64,000 nucleotides of DNA from an uncultured Chloroflexia bacterium (GCA_963833225.1 CAWHXD010000019.1:480001-544000); one strand, 5' to 3'; shown: positions 23,151 through 39,084, counted from the stretch's first letter. Program-made: numbers and translations. The notes: a model not told the origin generated them from the letters alone.

Positions 23151-25442
23151 TCACTCCACCTTCTCGATCAACCCGCGCAGTGCAGCCTGGTCGGGCGCCA
23201 GCAGCTCCGCGACCCGGGTCCCGTTCACCTCCGCAACGATGATCTCGCCGAGCTCGGTCCGGACGTCGCCGTACAGTCCCAGCGCCTGCATCCGCTCGGT
23301 CTGGACCCGGTTGTCCTCGGTGGGGCTGACGTAGTGCACGGACCCTGCCTTGTAGCGGTGGACCAGGAACAGGTGCGCGAGCGTCATCAGCCGCCGCCGG
23401 CGGAATGCCGGCTCATACGTGCCCTGGTCGCGCACCGAGAGGATCGATCGGCCGCGCCGGTCGTGGATCGGGGCGAACACGATCGAGGCCACCCGCCGCC
23501 CATCGGCGCCCAAGAGGGTCAGATCCAGCAACTCCGAGCCGGCCCGATGGGGGAGCAGCCGCACTCGGAGTGCCTCGTCGACCCCGTTCGACGCCGCCCA
23601 CAGCGTGAGCCAGCTCTCGAGCAGCTTCTTGGGGACCTCCGTCTGGATCGCGTGCTGGTGCTGGGTTGAGCCCTTGCCCATCGCCATCGTCGTGGCGGTG
23701 CGCCCCGATGAGGCCCTCAGCGCGGCGTCCAGCCGCGGCCCGCCGACCAGCGTCTGCGGCGTCCGGTACGGTGACTCAAGGAGCCGGATCTTGCGCTGCA
23801 ACTTGGCCAGCGCCAGCATCCCCTCCTCCTGGAGCGAGCGAGCGAACTCCTCGCTCGCGACGCCGTCGACCTGGTGGCCGCCATAGGTGATGAAGTTGAA
23901 CACGAAGCCCATCTTCCCCAGCTCCTCGGGGAAGCGGCGCATCTCGTCGTCGCTCATCCCGGTGGAGTCCCAGTTGAAGGACGGCGACAGGTTGTAGGCG
24001 AGCATCTTGTCGGGATGCACGGCGTGGATGGCGTCGGCGAACTCCCTCGCGTCCGCGAGGTCCGCGGTCTTCGTCTCCATCCACAGGATGTCGGCGAACG
24101 GCGCCACGGCGAGCGACTTGGCGATCGCGTACGGGATCCCGCCCCGGACCTGGTAGTAGCCCTCGGGGGTGGCTGCGAGCTCCGGGTCCCACGCCACGTC
24201 GAGGCCCAGCGTGCGCGCGCGCTCCATGGCGACCGCGTGCGGGGCGCCCTCGGCGGACCTGAGCCACTCGTCTGCCGGCAGCGAGCGAGCGCCACCCTCA
24301 GACTCGGCCTCGCGCTGGCGGAGGTGGTCGGCGACGGCGTCGGCGTAGGTAACGAGCCCGGCCTCGTCATCCCACGCCTCGAGGAATCGGGCGGCGGCCC
24401 GATCGAACGTGGTGTCGACGTCGGCACCGGCAACGATCTCTGCCGCGGCCGCGTCCACCGCGGCCCGCAGGCCCGTGCGCTCGAGCCACGCATCGGCCGC
24501 GGCGTACTCGACGTCGGTGATCGCGTACAGAAGATGGCCGTTGAGCTCCTTGGCGCCGGCGGCGTGGAACCGGCGGATGAGCGCGAGGTAGGCGACCTTG
24601 TACGAGGGGACGTCGAGGTTGGTGACCCCGAGCACGAACGGCTGGTCCCGCTCGTCGGTCCGGGTCTCGATGAGGTTGGCCGACTCGGCATCGGTGCGGG
24701 CGACGATGATCCCGGGCACGCGCATGACATCGAGCTGGAGGCGGGCGGCGTTGAGGCGCTTGATCTGCTCGCTGGAGCTGACCAGCACCTTGCCCCCCTG
24801 GTGACCGCACTTCTTGGTGCCTGGCCGCTGGTCCTCGATGTGATAGCCGGGGACGCCCGCCTCCACGAACCGGCGAACGAGGTTGCGCACGTGGGGGTCG
24901 CCGCCGTGGCCGGTGTCGGCGTCGGCGATGATGAACGGGCGGTAGTCGACGGCGGGAGTCGCCTCGCGCTGGGCGGGGGTCATCCGGGAGCGCAGGTACG
25001 CCTGGTTGCGATCGGCGGTCAGCAGCGCGCGGACGAGGCCGGTCGCCTCGTCGGGCACCTGCGAGAGCGGGTATGACGCGAGATCCGGCCCCGGATCCTC
25101 GGTGGTCGAGCCCTTGGCCGAGGTCGCCCAGCCGCCCAGGTAGATGCCTTCGATCCCCAGGCGCTTCATGACCACGGCTTGGCCCGGCGAGTAGGGCCCG
25201 AAGGTGGTGACACTGCGGCCTTGGGCGAACAGCTCGCGCAGCCTCGCATGGAAGGCGGCGGCCGCCTCGCGGGCGACCGTGTGGTCCGAGGCGATCGTGC
25301 CTCGCTGCTCCACGACCTGGCGCGCCGAGTGGAGGCGGGTGAGCCCGGCGAAACGCGGCGAGGCGAGCCACGCGTGCGTCGCGGCGATGTCGTCCTCGAA
25401 CGGGGTCTGCGGGGCGGTCGTCAGGTCGAGCAGGGCGGTCAT
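23151..25442 (-). CDS. aceA: Isocitrate lyase, long ICL2 type with C-terminal extra domain
   Basis: [38 protein letters not shown]; 763 aa. Confidence 0.93.
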
Positions 25443-27385
25443 GGCAGGTCTCCGGTCTCGGGCAGGTTCGGCGGGGGCTTGGCCGCCGGCGCCGGCTGGT
25501 CAGGTCGCGAGTTGAAGTCCGGATTGGCGGTGAGGCGGGTGCCGTCGCGGGCGATGGCGGCGAGGTAGCGGTTCGCCCGCTCCCGCTCGGTGGTCGGGCC
25601 CTCAGCCTCGAGGCCGAGGTTGAGCAGGTCGACGTACCAGGCTGGCTTGGCCGCCGCCGGCACGTAGGCTTCGACGGCCGCGCGGGCGACCGGCAGCGTG
25701 GTCTCCTTGGAGTCGTCGTGGACGTCGCGACCATTGGCGGCACGCAACTTCGCGTGCTCCTCGTCGAGAAGTCGCGCGAACAGGGCCGGCGTCAGCGCGT
25801 CCCCGGCGCGGACACCGGTCTCGGTGTCGTCCTCGGTGAATGGGGCGGCCTTGTGCAGCCACTCCCACAGGATCGAGAGCCGGATCTCACCGGTGGCCAT
25901 GTCCTCCATGAGGTACAGCACATCGTCATCGCCGAAGAAGTCGGCCGGCTTGAGAGCGGCAGCCTGGAAGCCGCGCAGGAACGCGTTGCCGTACTGGAGC
26001 CCCACCGAGAGCAGGTCGCGCGCGCCGCGGACCGTCCGCGGGGCCGGCTCGAGGGCAGTCAGGGCAGCCGCATCGTCCCCGTCGTAGGTGAGGGCCGGGA
26101 AGGAGCGTCCCAGCTGGTTGGCCTCGCCGGCGCGCTCCCACACCGGGCGGATGACGTGGACCATCTTCCAGTGGGCGACCCACTTGCCGGACGCGCCTTC
26201 GCGCTGCTCGCGCTCGGCGCCGGCGACGGCCTTGCCCATCGCGGACTCCACGCCCCGCTCCGAGCCAACGGGGATCTGCGCCTCCATGCCGCCCTGCCAC
26301 AGCGCGAACTGTCCGAGCGCATCGGGCGTGTTGACGGCGCGCCGCACGCGGTCCTCGTACGCACGCATGTAGGCGTACGTCATGCCGATGGCATCGATGT
26401 TCGGATTGGCGAAGCTGTCATTCCCGTGGAGCGCGTCGGCGACCGAGTTGATGTAGTCCCAGCGCCCAGTGTTGAAGCCCACGAAGTGGCGGCCGAGCGC
26501 GGCCCGGATCTCCATGAGCTGGAACGCTGCCTCGAGCTGCTCCACCAGCACGTACACGCGGATCGTGGCCGGTGGGAGTTCGAGGTGCGCCTCAAGGGAC
26601 TCGAGCAGCTCGCGCCACAGCGCCGCCTCATCGGCACGCTGGATCTTGGGCAGGTAGAGGGCGACGCTCCTGCCCTCGTCGAGCAGCGTGCGCGCGTTGG
26701 CGGCGACGTACAGGACGAGGTCCACGATCGAGGCGCCGAACCCGGTGCCGTCGGCCCGTCGGACATGCCGGTCGTCGAGATGGAGACCGCGCGGGCGGAA
26801 CAGGCGCGTCGTGAACCGGAGCTGATCTCGCCAGTCGTCGATGATGCGCCTGCCCAGGAAGGCTGCTGCCCAGTCGTTCATCTCGGCGGCAACGCCTTCC
26901 GCGATTGCCAGGAACCCAGGGTCGGCCGCGTACGCGAGCCGCAGGTTGCGCTGGTTGTCGAGCGCCATGAACTCGGTCTGGCCAAGGGCGTCCTCGCCGT
27001 CGAACATCCAGCCGTCGGCGCCTGAGAGCAGCGCGTACGCCGGGCTGCGCAGGCTCGACGCGAGCGAGCTTCGCGGCTTTGTCGCGGGCCCGGTGCCCTG
27101 GATCCACTGGCGCTCAAGGTCTGGCGGGATAGCGGCGCCCTCGAAGCGGCCGGCACGGGCGTCGGCCACCCGGATCGAGGTCCTGCCGATGGTCGAGGCG
27201 GGGTCGAGGAAGGCGACCGGCTCTCCATGGCGGGCGCGCTCGAGCCGCCGGCGGGCCCGGGCAGCCATCAGGTCGCGGCGCGCGTCGTCGAGCGGGGTCA
27301 GCGCCCTGAGGGCCGCCAGGGCGCCAGGGGTCAGGACATCCTCGTACGCGGGAAGCAGACCGCGACGAAGCTGCAGCGTGTCCAT
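25439..27385 (-). CDS. aceB: Malate synthase
   Basis: [47 protein letters not shown]; ATGA overlap with aceA. Confidence 0.9.
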
Positions 27386-27532
27386 TATCGGGGGCCCGGC
27401 CGTCTCGTGGTCGTGGACGCAGCCCGTGGGGAGGGTTCGCGAGTGGGGCTCATGTCGGATCTCCGCAGTGGGTGGAGCCGAATCATGACGTAATCCGTCC
27501 CATCAATCCAATGCTTTGTTATGATAGTTAAG

Positions 27533-27547
27533 ATCAACGATATCGAT
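27533..27547. promoter_or_regulatory. LysR-type box ATC-N9-GAT in an AT-rich divergent promoter
   Basis: ATCaacgatatcGAT in the AT-rich patch between aceB and lysR. Confidence 0.55.
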
Positions 27548-27563
27548 GGAATCAGGAGATACG

Positions 27564-28481
27564 GTGCTGACCGCGCAGGTCGAGGGCTTCTTGGAGATCG
27601 CCCGGTTGCGGAACCTCAGTCGCGCCGCGGGCGTGTTGCACCTGACCCAGCCAGCGCTCACGGCCCGGCTGCAGGCGTTGGAGGACGAGCTCGGCTCGCC
27701 GCTGTTCGAGCGATCCAGGCGGGGCATGCGGCTGACCGGGGCGGGCCGGGCGTTCCTGCCCTTCGCCGAGCGAGCGCTCGAGTCGATCGAGGCCGGCCGC
27801 TCGGTCGTCGCCGAGCATGCGCGGGGGCTCACCGGCCAGCTCACGATCGGCACCGCCCCTGCCGTTGGCGCCTACGTTCTGCCCGGCTTGCTGGCCCGGT
27901 TCATCCGCGACTTCCCGGGCATCCGGCTGGTCGTCCGCACCGGGCACTCGGAGGAGATCGTCCAGGCGGTCGCGGAGGGCAAGCTCGACGTTGGCCTGGT
28001 GCGCGAGCTGCACCACCCGGGCGTCACGGTCCGTCCGCTGTACGAGGACGAGCTGGTGCTCGTGGCGCCGCCCTCCAACGTGCTGGCCCGCGCCGGTCAT
28101 GTGGAGGTGGACCAGCTGGCCGACACGACGCTGATCCTGTTCGACCGCACATCGTCCTATTACGAGCTGACGCATGCCCTGTTCCGCGCGGCGGGCGTGG
28201 CACCGCGGGGCACGATCGAGCTGGACAACATCGAGGCCGCCAAGCAGATGGTGCGCCGCGGACTGGGCGTCGCCCTGCTGCCGCACTCGGCAATCGCGGC
28301 CGACGTCGCGAGCGGGTCGCTTCGCGCAGTGGCGCTCGAGGGAGTGGCACCTATGCGCCGCCGCCTGGTCGCGGTCCGCCGGGCAGGGGCGCCCGATTCG
28401 GGCCCCGCCGTCGCCGGGTTTCTCGACATTCTCGACCGTATCGACGAGATCATCCCGGACGAGGGCGCCATCCTCGCCTAG
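27564..28481 (+). CDS. LysR-family regulator, divergent from aceBA
   Basis: NLSRAA..LHLTQPALTARLQALE.ELG..LFER; AGGAG RBS before GTG 27564. Confidence 0.93.
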   Translation: MLTAQVEGFLEIARLRNLSRAAGVLHLTQPALTARLQALEDELGSPLFERSRRGMRLTGAGRAFLPFAERALESIEAGRSVVAEHARGLTGQLTIGTAPAVGAYVLPGLLARFIRDFPGIRLVVRTGHSEEIVQAVAEGKLDVGLVRELHHPGVTVRPLYEDELVLVAPPSNVLARAGHVEVDQLADTTLILFDRTSSYYELTHALFRAAGVAPRGTIELDNIEAAKQMVRRGLGVALLPHSAIAADVASGSLRAVALEGVAPMRRRLVAVRRAGAPDSGPAVAGFLDILDRIDEIIPDEGAILA

Positions 28482-28569
28482 ACGCCTGCGCCCGCACCCC
28501 GCCCCGTGCAAGGTCCTCGGCTGGGACAGCCCCGCCGACCGACTTCCTGGCCCTCGATCGTGTCGGTGA

Positions 28570-28896
28570 TCAGGCTGCGGGTGGTCCCTCCTTCCGCTTC
28601 GCCTGGCTGGTCCGCAGGCGGTACGCCGAGCGGTCGGTCTCGAGGATGTGGGCCCGGAAGGGGTGCCAGTCGACGACCGCGGCGGCCAGCCGCGGGTTGG
28701 TGAAGCTGAGGAGCTCGGCGAGGTACGCCCGGTGGGTGATCCGGGACCGAACCGCCGCCGTGAGCTCGTCGGCCGGGGTCAGGCTGAGCCTCTGGTCGAC
28801 ATCGCCACCCGAGAGGAATCCGATCGCGCTGGGCAGGGCGACGAGCAGCACGCCGAGCATGAGCACGAGCTGGCCCCACCGTCGGCGGTCGTTCAT
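28570..28896 (-). CDS. Small hypothetical protein with N-terminal TM/signal segment
   Basis: Hydrophobic LVLMLGVLLVALPSAIGFL; GAGGA before ATG. Confidence 0.4.
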   Translation of the reverse strand: MNDRRRWGQLVLMLGVLLVALPSAIGFLSGGDVDQRLSLTPADELTAAVRSRITHRAYLAELLSFTNPRLAAAVVDWHPFRAHILETDRSAYRLRTSQAKRKEGPPAA

Positions 28897-29139
28897 TGCG
28901 TGCCATCCTCGGGCAATCGCCCGGTCGAACGCCCAGGGCCGCCCACGCTACAGGGCGGAGTTGCCCCGCAAACCACGCCCTATCGGACGCGGGGTGGGGG
29001 CAAGGCTTTGCCCGGACGCGCGCGCGACCGGCGGTGGCGACCGTTCTGCTCCGGCTGCTCCCCACGCAGCATGAGGGTCGGGCAACGAACGCTTCCTGGC
29101 GTGGCGGGCGAGATCCACGCCCTCGATGTCACGATGCCG

Positions 29140-29874
29140 TCAGTGCCAGTCGACGTTCACGACCTCCATCGGCCCGGAGAGGCCCTTGAGCGTCGCGCTT
29201 CGGGCCGCGGAGGTCCGGTGCGATTCGCCCACCGTCGCCACGCTGGCGACGATATCTCCGGCGCCCCCGAGAGCGGCGATCCGGGCGGCCTCGTGGACGC
29301 CCTTGCCGTGGAAGTCGCCGCCCACCTGCGTCGCATCGGAGGCATGAAGCCCGATGCGCACCTGGGGCGCGAACCCCTGCGTCGCCCGGTGTTCGGCGAG
29401 TCGCCGCTGGATCGCGATCGCGGCGGCCACGGCGAGGTCGGGCGAGTCGAAGCTGACGAAGAAGCCATCGCCCGTGGTGGAGATCTCCTCGCCGTCGTGC
29501 GCGGTGAACACCTCGCGCAGGGTCGTGTTGTGCCAGCGGAGCAGCGTCTCCCAGGCCTCGTCGCCCAGGGCCTCGACCAGGTTGGTGGAGCCGACGATGT
29601 CGGTGAACATGAACGTCTTGAGGACCCGCCGGGCGGGTCCGGTCTTGCCCCGCAGCTGCCAGGGCAGGAGCTCCGTGACGTCCTCGAGGACGATGGCCGC
29701 CGTCGGGCACGAGAACGCGGCGGCGCGGAGGATCTCCTCGTCGACGGTGTCCGGCCCGACCAGATCGCTCTTGCCGTAGTCGCCGGCCAGCCAGTCGAAG
29801 GCGGTCGGCGCGAGGGTGATGCAGTTGCCGGCCCCCACGCACTTGTGGCGGTCGACGCGCGCCCGGATCGCCAT
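29140..29874 (-). CDS. Ferredoxin-class III nucleotide cyclase fusion
   Basis: VDRHKCVGAGNC...CPTAAI followed by FMFTDIVGST, TGDGFF, VRIGLH, GDFHGKGVHEAARI; ATG overlaps upstream TGA. Confidence 0.88.
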   Translation of the reverse strand: MAIRARVDRHKCVGAGNCITLAPTAFDWLAGDYGKSDLVGPDTVDEEILRAAAFSCPTAAIVLEDVTELLPWQLRGKTGPARRVLKTFMFTDIVGSTNLVEALGDEAWETLLRWHNTTLREVFTAHDGEEISTTGDGFFVSFDSPDLAVAAAIAIQRRLAEHRATQGFAPQVRIGLHASDATQVGGDFHGKGVHEAARIAALGGAGDIVASVATVGESHRTSAARSATLKGLSGPMEVVNVDWH

Positions 29875-32800
29875 CAGCGGGACCCCACAGTGGCGAGTCC
29901 GCGGAAGGCCAGCGACGTCGCCTCGGCGCGGCTCGACGCTCCCAGCCGGGCCTGCAGGTGCGCCAGCCGGCGGGCGACCTCGTCCTCGCCGACGTCGAGC
30001 TCGGCGGCGATCTCGGTGTTCGTCCGGCCCTGGGTCAGCAGCTGGAGCAGGCGGCGATCGGCCGCATCGAGGCTGGGTGCCGCGCCGGCCGGCCCGGGAC
30101 CCGTGGCCGGAGCGGGTGCCTCCATCGGCCCCGCCAGCTCGACCAGCCGGCGCCCGACCGGCCCGGTGAGCCACCGGACGCGGATCGCTTCGTCGGCCGT
30201 GCCCTGCGCGATCCTGGCCAGCGTCAGTTGGAGGTAGCCGCGGACGAACGCCTGGACCTCGGGCGGACCCCCGGCAAGCAGCGCCCGGGCCGCGGGAATG
30301 AGGATCTCCAGGCTGGTGTCCTCGTGAAGCCCGGCCTGGAGCGCCTCGAGGGCGGCACCGCCGGATGCCGCCGCGGCCGCCGTGTCGCCGCGCGCCAGGG
30401 CGACGTGGGCCAGTGCGGCGTCCGCCTGCGCCACCCACGGGGCGTGACCCGGAAGGAGTGGCAGGAGCGACGTCACCTGCGCCACGGATCGCTCGACGAC
30501 CTCGACCAGCGCGGCGTCCCGCTCGGTCGTGCCGGCCGCCGGCAGGCCGTCGGCGGTTCCGCCTTCGATGTGGCCGGCAGCCTCGATCGCGAGCCGCGCC
30601 AGCGTCTCGCAGCGGGCGGAGGCCCGGCCGCTTTCCGTCGCGATCGCGACCGCCCGCTCGAGATGGCGGAGCATGCCCTCGACATCGCCGGCCCCGGAAC
30701 GCACGATTCCCCGCCAGGTCTCGAGCTGGCGGGCACGAGTGCGCGACGGGGCCATGGACGCGGCCGTGGCGGCCAGGTCGAGCCAGCGCTCCGCCCCGTC
30801 CACGTCGCCGAGGTCGAGCAGGGCGAGCGCCACGCCACCGGCGGCCAGGAACTCGGTGCTCCGGTCGCCCAGCAGCCGGGCCGCCCGGTGGGCATCCTCG
30901 CCGCGCGTGATCGCGAGGTCCGGGACCACCTTGGCCCGCGAGTACACGTGGACCCCGAACAGCATCTGGAGATCGAGCCGATCGCGCTCGCTCTCGGTGA
31001 CGATCTCGGACAGGCGCGACGTCACCAGGCGGATCTCCTCGAGGTGGCGCGCCGAGTTGGACAGGTGCATCGCCGGCCCGTACCGCGCGTAGGCCATCGC
31101 GATGACGGTCGACATGACCCCGGTCCGGTCGCCGAGGCGCTCGAAGATGCCGAGCGCACGCTCGAGCACGTCCGTCGCCTCGGTCATCAGCGGGCCGATC
31201 GGCGAGCCGAGGATGAGCGCCTCCACGTCGGCACCCGATGCCACCGCGGCAACCATCTCGTTGGCGCGGCCGGCCATCACCTCGCCGCCGAACCACGCCC
31301 GGCCGCGGGCGAAGTCGATCATCCCGATCTCGCGCAGCGCCGCCGCCAGCTGGCGCTCGTCACCGAGCTGCCCGGCGAGCTCGATGGCGCGGCGGTATGC
31401 CTCCTCGGCCGCATCGAGGTCGATCTCGATCGCGGCGCCGCCGAACGACTCGCCCAGCGGGCTCCGGAGGGCGGCCTGGCCAAGCTCCATGGTGGCCCGG
31501 AGCTCCGTCCTGGCATCCCCGCGCTCGTGGGCCCGGGCCCGGACCCGCCCGGCCAGCTCCGCGGCCGTCTCCTCGTCATGGCTCATCCGGAGCGCCGATG
31601 CCCGCCGCAGCTGGACGTCGAGCTCGACCTCCGGGTCACGCATCGCCTCGGCGAGCGAAGCGAGCTCGGTCAAGCCATCCAGCCGCTCGCCGGTCTTTCG
31701 AAGGACGGCGTACGCGTCGTCGCGAGTCGCGAGGAGGACCCGCCGGTCGGCAGGGGCCGACACGACCGGGAGCGCCTGCTCGACGAGCCGGAGCGCCTCC
31801 TCGGGGGCATTGGAGGCCAGGGCGGCGCTCGCGGCATCGATCGAGAACCGGGCGGCCCGGGCGGTATCGCCGGCGGCGAGCGCGTGCTGGGCCAGCATCG
31901 GCAGGCCGGCCGGGGCGGGATCGCCGCCCTCGAGCAGCAGGTCGACGACGGCGGCGTGGACCTGGCGGCGACGCGCAGCCGACAGGTGGCTTGCGGCGAA
32001 CTGGCGAACCTGCTCGTGCGCGAAGGTGTAGTCCGCGGGCTGGCCCTGCGGCTGCGCAAGCAGGAGCCCGGCCGCGACGGCAGGCAAAAGCTCGTCCGCC
32101 AGGGGGTCGGCGCCACCGACGGCACCCGACCCATCGACGGCATCGAGCGGAGCGGCCGGCGCGCCGCCGGCGCTGCCCGGCGAGGACACGGGCTCGGCGC
32201 CTCCGAGGCGAGCCTGGACCGCCCGCAGGTCCCGCAGGCTGAAGCTGCGGCCGAGGATGGCCGCGTCCCCCAGGACCCCCCGCGTCAGGGCGGGCAGCCG
32301 CGCCGCCCGGCGATCGATCAGCGTCCGGACCGCGGACGGGACGAGCCGCGCCGCGTTGCGGCCGAGCCGCCACACACCATCGATCTGCTGGAGCGTGCCG
32401 GCTTCGCGGTAGGTCCGCGACAGCTCCTCGACGATGAACGGCACGCCCTCGGACTGCGCGTGCATCGAGGTCGCCGATGCCGCCTCGACCGGACCGCCCA
32501 GCACCCGCTTGAGCAGCTCCGCCGTCTCGACCGAGGTGAACCGTCCGAGCCGCAGCCGCCGAAGGAGACCCATCCGCTCCATGTCGGCCACGAGGTTCAC
32601 TGCCTCGGTGACGGCCGCGAACTCGTCCGGCCGGATCGTCACGAACAGGAAGATGGGCCGATCGGAATCGCTGCGGACCACGTAGCGGAGCAGCCGGAGC
32701 GTGTCGTCGTCGGCCCACTGGACGTCGTCGATCAGCAGCGCGAGCGGCCTGATGGTGGCGAGCGTCGAGATCGCAACGCCCGCGAGATCGAAGGCCCGGA

Positions 32801-33290
32801 GGAGCTTGGCCTCCGGCGAGAGTGCCTCGTAGCCGCGCTCGTCGCGCCCGGAGATTGCCTCCACCACCCGCCCGACGGCGCTCTCCGCCGGGGTCCCGGC
32901 AGTCGAGTCCCGGACCGAGCTCGACGCGAACAGGCTTCTCGCGAGGAGGAACGGGCCCCGGATCTGCTCGTCGGCCGTGATCGCGACGCAGGTGAAGCCC
33001 CGAGCGGCGGCGAGCTCCGCGGCCGCAAGCAGGAGCCGTGTCTTGCCGATCCCCGGCTCGCCCTCCACGGTCACCGCGGCAAGGCGGCCACCCGCCTCGA
33101 CGAGCTCCTGGGAGACCGCCTCGAGCTCGGCGCTCCGGCCGATGACGGCGCCGGAGGCACGGCGCAGCTGGACCGCGAGCGAGCACTGGGGGCCGACCAG
33201 CGGGTCGAGGGCACCGCCGTCCGTCTGCCGGAGCGCTGTGCCCGCCTCAACGGACGCCGATGCGCCGCCAGGCCCGGCGGACGAGAGCAT
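29874..33290 (-). CDS. STAND/AAA ATPase with TPR-like helical region and C-terminal LuxR HTH
   Basis: IGRSAEL, GEPGIGKT, LLIDDVQWAD, SEGVPFIVEEL, YTFAHEQVR, GRTNTEIAAELDVG. Confidence 0.88.
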   Translation of the reverse strand: MLSSAGPGGASASVEAGTALRQTDGGALDPLVGPQCSLAVQLRRASGAVIGRSAELEAVSQELVEAGGRLAAVTVEGEPGIGKTRLLLAAAELAAARGFTCVAITADEQIRGPFLLARSLFASSSVRDSTAGTPAESAVGRVVEAISGRDERGYEALSPEAKLLRAFDLAGVAISTLATIRPLALLIDDVQWADDDTLRLLRYVVRSDSDRPIFLFVTIRPDEFAAVTEAVNLVADMERMGLLRRLRLGRFTSVETAELLKRVLGGPVEAASATSMHAQSEGVPFIVEELSRTYREAGTLQQIDGVWRLGRNAARLVPSAVRTLIDRRAARLPALTRGVLGDAAILGRSFSLRDLRAVQARLGGAEPVSSPGSAGGAPAAPLDAVDGSGAVGGADPLADELLPAVAAGLLLAQPQGQPADYTFAHEQVRQFAASHLSAARRRQVHAAVVDLLLEGGDPAPAGLPMLAQHALAAGDTARAARFSIDAASAALASNAPEEALRLVEQALPVVSAPADRRVLLATRDDAYAVLRKTGERLDGLTELASLAEAMRDPEVELDVQLRRASALRMSHDEETAAELAGRVRARAHERGDARTELRATMELGQAALRSPLGESFGGAAIEIDLDAAEEAYRRAIELAGQLGDERQLAAALREIGMIDFARGRAWFGGEVMAGRANEMVAAVASGADVEALILGSPIGPLMTEATDVLERALGIFERLGDRTGVMSTVIAMAYARYGPAMHLSNSARHLEEIRLVTSRLSEIVTESERDRLDLQMLFGVHVYSRAKVVPDLAITRGEDAHRAARLLGDRSTEFLAAGGVALALLDLGDVDGAERWLDLAATAASMAPSRTRARQLETWRGIVRSGAGDVEGMLRHLERAVAIATESGRASARCETLARLAIEAAGHIEGGTADGLPAAGTTERDAALVEVVERSVAQVTSLLPLLPGHAPWVAQADAALAHVALARGDTAAAAASGGAALEALQAGLHEDTSLEILIPAARALLAGGPPEVQAFVRGYLQLTLARIAQGTADEAIRVRWLTGPVGRRLVELAGPMEAPAPATGPGPAGAAPSLDAADRRLLQLLTQGRTNTEIAAELDVGEDEVARRLAHLQARLGASSRAEATSLAFRGLATVGSR

Positions 33291-34651
33291 CACGCCTCGC
33301 TCGCCGCCGACAGCTGGTCGGCATAGCGCTCGAGGGAGCGGGCCACCTTGGCCAGGGGCTCCATGAGGGCGGGTGTGCACGCCTGCCCGCAGCGACGGGC
33401 GAAGGCGGCCGCATCCCGAAGGCGCTCCTCCATCAGCACCCAGGCCGCCCGCTGGTGTGGCAGCAGGTAGTCGACCTGGTAGAACAGCTCGAACCCGGGG
33501 CCGGCGGTGACGCCGGGCATGTCCAGGCCGATGGGCAGCGTCGTGACCACGGTGCCGAGGGGCTTGATCGCGGTGTACATCAGGCCGACGCTGACGTCGG
33601 CCAGGACCTGGAGCTGCTCCGGCGATTCGTCGGTATGGGCGAAGTACCGGGACAACAGCTGGAGCAGCACCTCGTTGGTCACGTTGAGCAGGTCCATGCA
33701 GCGGGTCGTCCCGGGGTCCGTGATGAGGGGCACCTCGACCCCGGTCGACTGCGGCCGGACGTTGGCGGCGACGACGGGCCGCGCGGGCTCGAACCCCGGA
33801 TCCGCCTGCTTGAGCTCGAGGTATTCGTCGAGGATGCCCAGGAGGCGTCCGAAGTGGGCGTCGCGCCACTCGCCGCGCGCGCCCTCGCCCTGCTCGACGA
33901 TGGTGTCGATCGCCTGGTTCGCAGTGGCGAGGTCGGTCACCGCGACCAGCTCCGGCCACCGGAAGTGCTCCTCGGTCGCCTGGGCGCCGGGAGGCCCCAC
34001 GAACAGGCGCTCCGAGCCCAGTCTGCCGTCGAGGTGCTCGAAGCCGGCCTGGAGCGAGCGGTAGAGCTGGCCGATCGTGTCGAACTCCTGCAGCTGCGGC
34101 ACGATCTCGTCCGCCCCGCCATGCGGCAGCGGGACCGCCTGCTCGACCGCCGCGAACATCTCGGCGTCCTCGACGTCCATCCCCTCCGGCCGCTCGAGGA
34201 AGGCGAAGTGGCGCAGGGCTGCCTCGCCGAACGGCACCAGCTCGATCCGCACCCCGGCCGGGTAGGCATAGGCGGTCATCGGGAAGTTCGGCCGGGCGAG
34301 ACGCGGGGCGGCGCCGACCGCCGTGAGCAGGTTCTGGACGAGCGCGAGGTGGAGCATCTCCTGCTCGGCGATCTCCAGCAGCGTCTTGCGCCAGCGCTTG
34401 ATCGCCGCGAGCTGGTCCGGCGTCAGCCCCTCGTCCTCGGACTGCTTGAGCGAGAACGCCGCGAACAGGTACATGAGCATCACGAGGTGCTCGAGCTCGG
34501 CGGCCTTGCCCAGGGTGTAGACAAGCGCCTCGCGGTGCTCCAGGCCCCCGGTGTGTGCGTCGTCGGGCCCCCGTCGGATCTCCAGGACGGTGGCCAGCGG
34601 GCCGTGCGGGCCGGGCATGGCACTCGTGCCCGGGGTTGAACCTTCGATCAT
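33290..34651 (-). CDS. Ferritin-like domain protein (VioB-type ferritin-like family)
   Basis: AAELEH..MLMYLFAAFSL, IAEQEMLHL.LVQNLL.AVG, IVEQGEG, AHF.R. Confidence 0.82.
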   Translation of the reverse strand: MIEGSTPGTSAMPGPHGPLATVLEIRRGPDDAHTGGLEHREALVYTLGKAAELEHLVMLMYLFAAFSLKQSEDEGLTPDQLAAIKRWRKTLLEIAEQEMLHLALVQNLLTAVGAAPRLARPNFPMTAYAYPAGVRIELVPFGEAALRHFAFLERPEGMDVEDAEMFAAVEQAVPLPHGGADEIVPQLQEFDTIGQLYRSLQAGFEHLDGRLGSERLFVGPPGAQATEEHFRWPELVAVTDLATANQAIDTIVEQGEGARGEWRDAHFGRLLGILDEYLELKQADPGFEPARPVVAANVRPQSTGVEVPLITDPGTTRCMDLLNVTNEVLLQLLSRYFAHTDESPEQLQVLADVSVGLMYTAIKPLGTVVTTLPIGLDMPGVTAGPGFELFYQVDYLLPHQRAAWVLMEERLRDAAAFARRCGQACTPALMEPLAKVARSLERYADQLSAASEA

Positions 34652-34739
34652 GGGGCGCCTCCCAAGGGTTTGGGCGATCGAATTCGCGGAGGAACGCGGC
34701 GCCGGCCGGCGGACCGCGGGCGTGAGCGGAGCCGGAGAC

Positions 34740-35033
34740 TCACATCGCGGCGCCCTCGTCGCTCGCCGGACCGGACTCGTAGAACCGGTCGTCCGGGTAG
34801 CACCACCACCAGGCCTCGCCGGGCTCTGCGCTCCGGATCATCGGGTGCCCCGTCTCGCGGTGATGGGCCGTGGCGTGCCGGTTCGGGCTCTCGTCGCAGC
34901 AGCCTGTGCGGCCGCAGGAGAGGCACTGTCGGAGGTGGATCCACCGGCCGCCAGTCTCGACGCACGTTGAACAGACCCGGAGCGGCGCGTCAACCCGGAT
35001 GTCGGGCTCGAAGTGCTCGCAGTACGACGTCAC
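34740..35033 (-). CDS. Stand-alone UBP-type zinc finger protein
   Basis: CEH...CSTC...WIHLRQCLSCG.TGCCD.SPNRHATAH...GHPMIRS.EPGE.W.WCYPD. Confidence 0.9.
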   Translation of the reverse strand: MTSYCEHFEPDIRVDAPLRVCSTCVETGGRWIHLRQCLSCGRTGCCDESPNRHATAHHRETGHPMIRSAEPGEAWWWCYPDDRFYESGPASDEGAAM

Positions 35034-35293
35034 GTGGCAACTCGGGCAGCGACCTGCAGTGTGCGGATCCTGCGTGGCAGGTCTCGTTGCCCGGACACTA
35101 CCACCGAACGCCCGGTGGGCTCATGCGGCGAGCGCAGGTCGGACGTCCGGGCTCCGGCGAGAGCGCGAACGCCCAGGGCCGGCCACGGATGACGACCGGT
35201 CGTGATCGATTCGCACCAACGTGCGAGGATTGGAGCAACCCTGAATGTCGGCAGTCATGCCATGGACGAACCGGCGGGGCCGTCAGGAGCCCA

Positions 35294-38169
<2,876 letters not shown>

Positions 38170-38173
<4 letters not shown>

Positions 38174-39084
38174 GGATCCTCATCGCCGACGACGACGTGA
38201 CGTCTCGGCTCGTGCTCATCGGGGTGCTCCGCAAGCACGGCCACGACATCGTGGCCGCCGTGGACGGGGCGGAGGCCTGGGAGATGATGCGCCGACCGAA
38301 TGCGCCGGCCCTGGCCATCCTGGACTGGATGATGCCCGGGCTCTCCGGCGTCGAGGTCTGCCGCCGTATCCGTGACCTCCACCAGGACCAGCGGCCCTAC
38401 CTCCTCATCCTCACGTCCCGCGGCGAGAAGACCGACGTCGTCGCGGGGCTCGAGGCCGGGGCGGACGACTACCTGGCCAAGCCATTCGATCCGGGCGAGC
38501 TGCGCGCCCGGGTGGACGTGGGCCGGCGGATGATCGACCTCCAGGTCCAGCTGCGCAAGGCGCACGCGGCCGTCACCCACGCTGCCATGCATGACCCGCT
38601 GACCGGCGTCCTGAACCGTCGGGCGTTTGGCGAGGTCCTGACCCGGGCGGTGTCTGAGCAGCGCCGCCACCATGGGGGGCTGGCCCTCGGGATCTGCGAC
38701 GTCGACGAGTTCAAGAAGATCAATGACGCCAAGGGCCACCAGGCGGGAGACAAGGTGCTGTGCGGGCTCGTCCGCGTGGTCGCCGGCACGCTCCGCGGGC
38801 AGGACGTCCTGAGCCGGTACGGCGGCGACGAGTTCGTCGCCCTGGCGGAACAAATCAGCGAGGCCGACGCCGGGAGGTTGTTCGAGCGAGTGCGCGCGGC
38901 CGTCGCCGCCGATGCCATCGCCACGAGGGCGGGGGACGTGCCGGTCACGATCAGCTTCGGGGTCGCCACGTGGCGGGACGATGACACCGAGGACCAGCTG
39001 CTCGCGAGGGCCGATGCCGCCCTGTACCGGGCCAAGAGCGAGGGGCGAGATCGAGTCTGCCTCGACGGTGAACCGGCGCCATGA
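38170..39084 (+). CDS. REC-GGDEF diguanylate cyclase
   Basis: LDWMMPG, DPLTG..NRR, RGQD I-site, RYGGDEF; ATGA overlap with the kinase. Confidence 0.95.

Follow-up and report, generated by a model that had tools for sequence, protein, structure and literature searches.

The stretch of DNA analysed here (the window) is 64,000 nucleotides in length and belongs to an uncultured soil bacterium of the Chloroflexota (GCA_963833225.1, CAWHXD010000019.1:480001-544000). At positions 29140-35033 it carries a cluster of four minus-strand genes in the order UBP-ferl-STAND-cyclase, encoding a zf-UBP mini-protein (UBP), a ferritin-like protein of family PF12902 (ferl), a STAND regulator with a LuxR-type DNA-binding domain and a fusion of a ferredoxin domain with a class III nucleotide cyclase (ferredoxin-cyclase). 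The cluster consists of two units, an invariant STAND-cyclase pair and a looser UBP-ferl pair, often but not always joined. The link between ferl and the STAND-cyclase pair is more than chance and probably couples redox state to signalling. The cluster is a real module, conserved in part, which represents a variant of cyclase/STAND signalling with a plausible redox logic.

Conservation of gene order

Two sets of loci from species-representative genomes were compared, 80 centred on ferl and 80 centred on the cyclase. Starts of the called genes were trimmed by the GC3-GC2 score (G + C content at third and second codon positions), and the four anchor genes were labelled by best match. Loci are designated L, genomes G and proteins P. 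A STAND homologue is located directly upstream of the cyclase in 80/80 cyclase-centred loci, and the two genes overlap by 1 nt in 54 of 68 called gene pairs. Association with ferl is partial. STAND/cyclase genes are found within the ferl locus in 30 of 80 cases, that is in 30/66 determinable loci (14 of the 50 negatives had less than 5 kb on one side and were set aside). Viewed from the cyclase, ferl is adjacent in 28/66 determinable loci (11 were left undetermined; 3 with less than 2 kb upstream were dropped). Gene order, the conservation of which was to test the single four-gene system proposed by an earlier annotation made from the sequence alone (the sequence-only reading), is kept in under half of the loci on either side. 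The partial adjacency counts show that the four genes do not form a single fixed system. The part of that proposal that stands is a non-random link between ferl and the STAND-cyclase pair; UBP goes with one ferl subfamily only.

Neighbours were counted over 159 loci, some contigs having been fetched twice. The most frequent families within two genes of STAND/cyclase are ferl (44 times) and UBP (29 times), no other exceeding 5; around ferl they are UBP (52 times), STAND (37 times) and cyclase (37 times), followed by a family counted 10 times. Other recurrent neighbours (GNAT, cold-shock protein, several DUFs) are functionally unrelated.

Five arrangements occur. They are spread over four of the five deep lineages of STAND-cyclase and over two subfamilies of ferl with 40% identity to each other. 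UBP-ferl-STAND-cyc (cyc, ferredoxin-cyclase) is the commonest. The others are STAND-cyc-UBP-ferl (L026/L114, L029/L101, L030), STAND-cyc-ferl (L199), cyc<-STAND<- ->ferl (L200, L389) and STAND-cyc-flavoprotein-ferl (L218). One or two further genes interrupt the series in L010/L095, L124 and L039/L117, and ferl lies 6.8 kb downstream in L133. In the G293/G160 lineage (L196:14280-14657, -, and L198:5574-5987, +), a gene for a SnoaL-like small protein is located directly upstream of STAND, the position occupied by ferl in the window.

Deep lineages and co-occurrence

The sample for co-occurrence comprised 301 Chloroflexota genomes. Full-length ferredoxin-cyclase is encoded in seven of them (G000, G293, G160, G277, G261, G140, G292). 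A full-length PF12902 gene is present in 6/7 genomes with the cyclase vs 10/294 genomes without it, the latter count including a broken gene (G285) and the unpublished G272 (9/293 without G272). In G277, the cyclase genome without a full-length PF12902 gene, the STAND gene is at a contig end. The Fisher p of the association is 5.5e-8, a value that ignores kinship, the independent lineages being perhaps four or five. Co-occurrence of PF12902 with ferredoxin-cyclase had been named as a check by the sequence-only reading and was found.

STAND proteins of the deep lineages are 47-62% identical. G261 has the order STAND-cyc-ferl, with a ferl protein 79% identical to that of the window. In G140, cyc<-STAND<- is divergent from a ferl gene of the second subfamily (40% identity). 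The order STAND-cyc-Pyr_redox_2 flavoprotein-ferl, again with second-subfamily ferl, is found in L218, a metagenome-assembled genome (MAG) labelled as Dehalococcoidia. Among 39 genomes of the order to which G140 belongs, the cyclase is present in G140 only; the unit is therefore patchy and has probably undergone horizontal transfer. The window's genus has one further genome in the sample, G079 (97% complete), and this lacks both a ferredoxin-cyclase orthologue and a PF12902 gene, so that the module is patchy even within the genus. Chance is set aside as the source of the link on four grounds: synteny is otherwise poor, gene orders vary with proximity kept, the association recurs in deep lineages, and the genes co-occur.

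Ferredoxin-cyclase and STAND regulator

The ferredoxin-cyclase matches Fer4_13 (E 1e-6), Fer4_15 (E 2e-5) and Guanylate_cyc (PF00211, E 3.9e-9), all above cut-offs. Among orthologues the length of 244 aa and the ELLPWQL linker are almost fixed. The ferredoxin domain matches the Thermotoga ferredoxin 1ROF (E 8e-7) and has the motif of a single-cluster ferredoxin, C12-x2-A15-x2-C18...C56-P57, invariant in 83 sequences. A three-Cys pattern with Ala at the second position is taken here to be typical of 3Fe-4S ferredoxins.

The nearest solved relatives of the cyclase domain are Rv1900c (E 7e-23) and Ma1120 (E 1e-20). Both metal-binding aspartates of class III cyclases, D92 and D136, are invariant in the 83 cyclase sequences. 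The canonical substrate Lys and transition-state Asn are absent: Ser132 occupies the Lys position in 77/83 sequences and His194 the Asn position in 83/83. Arg198 is retained in all 83. These assignments of residues to active-site positions are presumed from general knowledge of the enzymes and from the alignment with Rv1900c. In that alignment the solved Rv1900c domain likewise has His at the position of the transition-state Asn and is missing the substrate Lys. According to a structure study in EMBO J of 2005, Rv1900c is reportedly active without the canonical Lys and Asn.

The STAND protein combines a nucleoside triphosphatase (NTPase) domain (AAA_16, E 8e-16) with a helix-turn-helix (HTH) domain (GerE/LuxR, E 6e-7). 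Walker A (GEPGIGKT) and Walker B (LLIDD within LLIDDVQWAD) motifs are visible. About 860 residues separate the NTPase from the HTH and give no Pfam match to TPR at E <= 0.01. The protein matches the NCBIfam cyclase-fusion model TIGR03903. No sequence relative was found in the PDB at E <= 0.001.

Ferritin-like protein and zf-UBP mini-protein

ferl is a member of PF12902 (E 8e-43, 147 bits, cut-off 22.3), a family of 3632 representatives at 50% clustering. In the literature searched, PF12902 is mentioned by two of the papers listed for its accession, in passing both times, and no tested function was found. A four-helix bundle is predicted with high confidence by the AlphaFold2 model (pLDDT 90.1, pTM 0.90). 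The sole significant fold match in the PDB is 3HL1 (Foldseek E 3.5e-7, TM-score 0.61 on the target); bundles of Dps and bacterioferritin resemble the model weakly (E > 0.1). In 58 sequences, 33-83% identical to ferl of the window, five residues (E54, E98, H101, E153 and H266) never vary and two more (H55 and E256) hardly do. The candidate ligand set is E54(H55), E98-x2-H101, E153 and E256...H266. As a conserved pattern, the Glu/His set is consistent with a di-metal site, and ferl is probably a di-iron oxidoreductase.

Longer homologues are tied to iron-sulfur domains. Of ten that were scanned, five (P0128, P0130, P0140, P0163 and P0169; 660-1250 aa) possess Fer4_19 and two CDGSH Fe-S domains. 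At 80 distant ferl loci, largely proteobacterial, the protein is mostly of 628-718 aa (gene calls).

UBP matches PF02148 with 53.8 bits (cut-off 22.7). The Cys/His columns of the zinc-finger pattern are largely conserved in 38 sequences. The protein aligns over its full length with PDB 2IDA (E 1e-23), a hypothetical protein of bacterial origin. A C-terminal Gly-Gly is present on none of the four cluster proteins. On the strand of ferl and no more than 700 nt from it, a UBP homologue is present in 37/80 ferl-centred loci, 35 times upstream and 2 times downstream. It is possible that the bacterial zf-UBP mini-protein is an accessory subunit of the ferl enzyme.

Rieske proteins and other iron-sulfur links

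In G140, L218 and G292 the second-subfamily ferl gene is followed by a convergent gene for a fusion of a Rieske [2Fe-2S] domain with a cNMP_binding domain (cNMP, cyclic nucleoside monophosphate). The Rieske-cNMP gene also follows ferl in 6/6 metagenome contigs with downstream sequence (L388-L393), L392 and L218 being probably the same organism. STAND-cyclase adjoins in L388 (partial) and L389, not in L390. None of 8 ferl loci from genomes without ferredoxin-cyclase contains the Rieske-cNMP gene. Searched against genome contigs, the Rieske-cNMP query gave generic Rieske-domain matches only (residues ~1-100), in actinobacteria and others. No description of a Rieske + cNMP-binding architecture was found in the literature searched. 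In G292 the Rieske and cNMP-binding halves are in different frames (L378:7128-7185), which is a frameshift, an assembly error or a natural split.

A protein of 469 aa with Pyr_redox_2 and dimerisation domains is encoded between ferredoxin-cyclase and ferl at L218:6543-7952 (+). This flavoprotein is a candidate NAD(P)H entry point of the electron chain. By gene content, the association of ferl with Fe-S carriers recurs; in lineages that have the cyclase, the carriers bear predicted cNMP writer or reader domains.

Proposed mechanism and alternatives

The interpretation preferred here, advanced tentatively and with slightly less than even confidence, is that of an Fe-S-gated cNMP and transcription module which controls, or reads, the di-iron redox enzyme ferl. 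Its observed basis is the gene content, the conservation of ligands and catalytic residues, the invariant pairing of STAND with the cyclase, and the recurrent adjacency and co-occurrence of ferl. The Fe-S domain of the cyclase would read redox or oxidant state, via electron load or cluster integrity, and gate the cyclase. Two outputs would result, a cyclic nucleotide and an ATP-switched STAND-LuxR protein as the transcriptional arm, the latter presumably coupled to the cyclase in translation. ferl would be an Fe-S-fed redox enzyme under cyclase/STAND control. In the operon of the window this control would be transcriptional; in sister clusters it may also be post-translational, via the Rieske [2Fe-2S] carrier with the cNMP-binding domain. 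The location of Rieske-cNMP genes beside ferl suggests that ferl is downstream of the nucleotide. The scheme predicts metal content, enzyme activity, the direction of the signal and physical contacts. The presence of 6 cyclase-domain genes and 7 cNMP-binding genes in the window's genome is counted in its favour.

A wider logic, which would be new, is doubtful at present: Fe-S carriers on both the cNMP writer (ferredoxin-cyclase) and the cNMP reader (Rieske-cNMP) would form a redox-to-cNMP-to-electron-supply loop around PF12902 di-iron enzymes, with STAND-LuxR as the transcriptional arm and UBP as an accessory metal/redox subunit.

Several observations weigh against the preferred interpretation. 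ferl is not nearby in 38/66 determinable cyclase loci, which is over half. STAND-cyclase and UBP-ferl are on different contigs in at least 15 assemblies, as judged by accession prefixes. A FastTree tree of STAND + cyclase DNA (78 rows, the window among them) requires at least 8 changes of the adjacency state, and its deepest clade, of 10 rows, shows no case of adjacency (7 apart, 3 undetermined). ferl is apart from STAND-cyclase in G292, G293 and G160, where it is on a separate contig, and in L390; in L105 it is missing, the downstream flank of the window being shared. The TGATG overlap of ferl with STAND is not general: 3/27 pairs overlap and the median gap is 46 nt (gene calls). The genomes compared are related and not independent, so that the counts overstate the support. 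Distant ferl homologues have no STAND, cyclase or UBP gene nearby in 78/80 loci, mostly proteobacterial. There is no Rieske-cNMP fusion in the window's genome. Since the canonical Lys and Asn are absent, cyclase activity and product are only predicted.

An alternative is that ferl itself senses O2, reactive oxygen species, NO or iron and informs the cyclase and STAND by electron transfer or contact, both being pure outputs. Adjacency and co-occurrence fit this view as well as the preferred one; ferl precedes STAND in the operon, the two genes of the window sharing a stop/start overlap; and its homologues are tied to Fe-S domains, one of them (P0128) with a weak globin-like match (Bac_globin, E 0.0084, below cut-off). 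The location of sister-cluster ferl beside a cNMP-binding Fe-S carrier, however, places ferl downstream of the nucleotide, and its wide occurrence without the cyclase is what an enzyme, more than a dedicated sensor, would be expected to show. The alternative is regarded as unlikely. The sequence-only reading had cast ferl as a reporter to the cyclase; the Rieske-cNMP neighbour and the Fe-S fusions favour an Fe-S-fed enzyme downstream, a sensor role being less probable.

Somewhat more unlikely again is the absence of any functional link, in which independent STAND-cyclase and UBP-ferl units were neighbours once in an ancestor and are now separating, the window being a leftover. The separations and state changes listed above speak for it, and window-type cases are all within one class of closely related MAGs. 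It is opposed by the recurrence of adjacency with the 40%-identical ferl subfamily in other orders and orientations, by the co-occurrence counts, by the lack of any other retained neighbour in these low-synteny loci, and by the cNMP-binding Rieske gene beside ferl, an independent thematic tie to the cyclase.

LAL regulators commonly control biosynthetic clusters, and ferl could be a VioB-like biosynthetic enzyme with the STAND-LuxR protein as the LAL-type regulator of a small natural-product cluster. VioB, one of the VioB/StaD/RebD iminophenyl-pyruvate dimer synthases, is homologous to ferl in its C-terminal region, and the C-terminal part of ferl matches positions 792-937 of the VioB model TIGR04492 (E 2.8e-22); but the score is 78.4 bits vs an equivalog cut-off of 1250, the N-terminal half of VioB (~560 residues) is missing and the pathway context is absent. 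With no biosynthetic genes adjacent in the window, in agreement with the sequence-only reading, and none recurrent in 158 related Limnocylindria-type loci, this interpretation is very improbable and was rejected.

STAND NTPases are common in defence systems, and the cyclase gives weak matches to PycC (E 3e-5 to 1e-3), but an anti-phage or stress defence system with a cyclic-nucleotide signal (Pycsar-like or Avs-like), which the sequence-only reading had offered as its alternative, is the least probable explanation of all and was rejected on the PADLOC result: there is no system-level match for the four proteins (none for ferl or UBP, a stray HTH-level match for STAND), the class III fold common to both accounts for the PycC matches, STAND has a DNA-binding domain of the LuxR type as its output, the pair is kept across many related species (71-93% cyclase identity) without an effector gene, and no mobile-element genes were seen among the scanned neighbours.

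Comparison with known systems

The closest known kind is the mycobacterial regulator with a cyclase homology domain (CHD), an ATPase and a LuxR domain. Rv0386, Rv1358 and Rv2488c (CHD + LuxR) share with the cluster a class III cyclase, an AAA_16-type NTPase and a C-terminal LuxR HTH as a unit. Cyclase-ATPase-LuxR proteins of mycobacteria are described in the available part of PMC3466318, in which no ferritin-like partner is reported for them. In the Rv0386 type the cyclase is fused at the N-terminus of the NTPase, whereas here it is a separate downstream open reading frame (ORF) in 80/80 loci and carries its own ferredoxin domain. Since the cyclase is downstream of the regulator and not N-terminal to it, the pair is not a simple gene fission of the Rv0386 type. 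In many Chloroflexota genomes, cyclase-domain matches lie inside open frames of 850-1270 aa, which are probably fused cyclase-NTPase-LuxR forms.

The best solved relatives of the cyclase are Rv1900c (LipJ; PDB 1YBT/1YBU) and Ma1120 (4WP3 and others). Where Rv1900c has an alpha/beta hydrolase as its N-terminal partner, the present protein has a ferredoxin domain. Many kinds of sensor domain are known to accompany class III cyclases. No Fe-S ferredoxin input to a class III cyclase was found in the literature searched.

Fusions of PF12902 with Fer4_19 and CDGSH share the ferl domain at 36-60% identity and are tied to Fe-S domains. A ferritin-like/CDGSH architecture is listed in PMC5859297. These fusions carry Fe-S in cis, whereas the Fe-S domain of the window is on the cyclase, two genes from ferl. 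CC_0557 of Caulobacter vibrioides (PDB 3HL1) is the only solved protein that matches ferl significantly in both sequence (E 0.005) and fold. It is shorter than ferl (~290-317 residues), 20% identical, lacks part of the C-terminal domain and is a structural-genomics entry without function.

The stand-alone bacterial zf-UBP mini-protein 2IDA is matched over its full length by UBP of the window. In the accessible part of PMC2602986 the zf-UBP family is treated as widespread mini-proteins of unknown function, and the UBP-ferl adjacency goes unmentioned there. No description of the ferl/STAND/ferredoxin-cyclase/UBP combination was found in the literature searched, which accords with the sequence-only reading. 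The ferl link, the co-occurrence and the Rieske-cNMP link are novel results of the present analysis.

Gene coordinates and setting

Coordinates are given in Table 1. All four ORFs are open, and in each the G + C content peaks at third positions of its own frame, as is typical of coding sequence. Together with the Pfam matches this confirms the four co-oriented genes and domains of the sequence-only reading. Its junctions are likewise correct: TGATG at 29874 and at 33290 is a 1-nt stop/start overlap, and 88 nt separate the stop of UBP (34740) from the start of ferl (34651).

Table 1. Coordinates of the cluster genes and associated features in the window, and of Rieske-cNMP genes in related loci (L).
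Feature	Position	Strand	Description
Ferredoxin-cyclase fusion	29140-29874	-	244 aa; ferredoxin 6-62, ELLPWQL linker, class III cyclase 87-214+
STAND / LAL-type regulator	29874-33290	-	1138 aa; AAA_16 NTPase 49-215, putative long helical middle, LuxR HTH 1079-1128
ferl, PF12902 ferritin-like protein	33290-34651	-	453 aa; N-terminal four-helix bundle (predicted) and C-terminal helical domain
Shine-Dalgarno GGGAGG	34658-34663	-	6 nt ahead of ferl ATG; direct sequence reading
zf-UBP mini-protein	34740-35033	-	97 aa, GTG start; Pfam PF02148, E 2.3e-14
Intergenic region	35034-35293	.	Between the cluster and the divergent hybrid histidine kinase gene; presumed promoter region of the cluster
Rieske + cNMP-binding protein	L200:15008-15784	-	Convergent with second-subfamily PF12902 gene
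Rieske + cNMP-binding protein	L218:9304-10305	-	Convergent with second-subfamily PF12902 gene
Rieske + cNMP-binding protein	L390:10261-11121	-	Convergent with second-subfamily PF12902 gene
Rieske + cNMP-binding protein	L378:6844-7592	+	Convergent with second-subfamily PF12902 gene

A consensus scan of 28400-35400 found no sigma-70-like promoter or terminator, and a scan of 28000-36000 gave no Rfam match. The short inverted repeats present upstream of the cluster are unremarkable. Neighbouring genes encode isocitrate lyase, malate synthase, a LysR regulator, an orphan 108-aa ORF product, a divergent hybrid histidine kinase and a REC-GGDEF protein.

Isocitrate lyase (763 aa) and malate synthase (648 aa), overlapping by 4 nt and with a divergent LysR gene beside them, form a glyoxylate-shunt unit at 23151-28481. 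The same trio is also located downstream of STAND-cyclase in L105, a locus without ferl. The 108-aa ORF (28570-28896, -) has coding-type GC3 and lies 243 nt downstream of the cyclase; searches of Pfam and PADLOC, and tblastn against 158 Limnocylindria-type loci, found no match to it. The hybrid histidine kinase gene (35294-38173, +; ~959 aa, PAS-PAS-HisKA-HATPase-REC-REC-Hpt) is divergent from the cluster and overlaps by 4 nt with the gene of the REC-GGDEF diguanylate cyclase (the pair is 35294-39084, +). This pairing is not kept in related loci.

The window's genome is characterized by the size of 3.89 Mb in 20 contigs and is 86% complete. Close relatives of ferl and of the cyclase are all in Chloroflexota MAGs, many of them of Candidatus Limnocylindrales/Limnocylindria, and not in actinobacteria.

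Significance

Should the proposed module not prove true, an invariant STAND-cyclase gene pair is still documented and the assumed taxonomy is corrected. If it is true, it would provide the first physiological handle on PF12902. The 244-aa Fe-S-gated cyclase, compact and of fixed length, would be of use as a tool or as a biosensor scaffold. For the abundant uncultured Chloroflexota of soil, the module would represent a direct route from redox state or oxidants to a second messenger.

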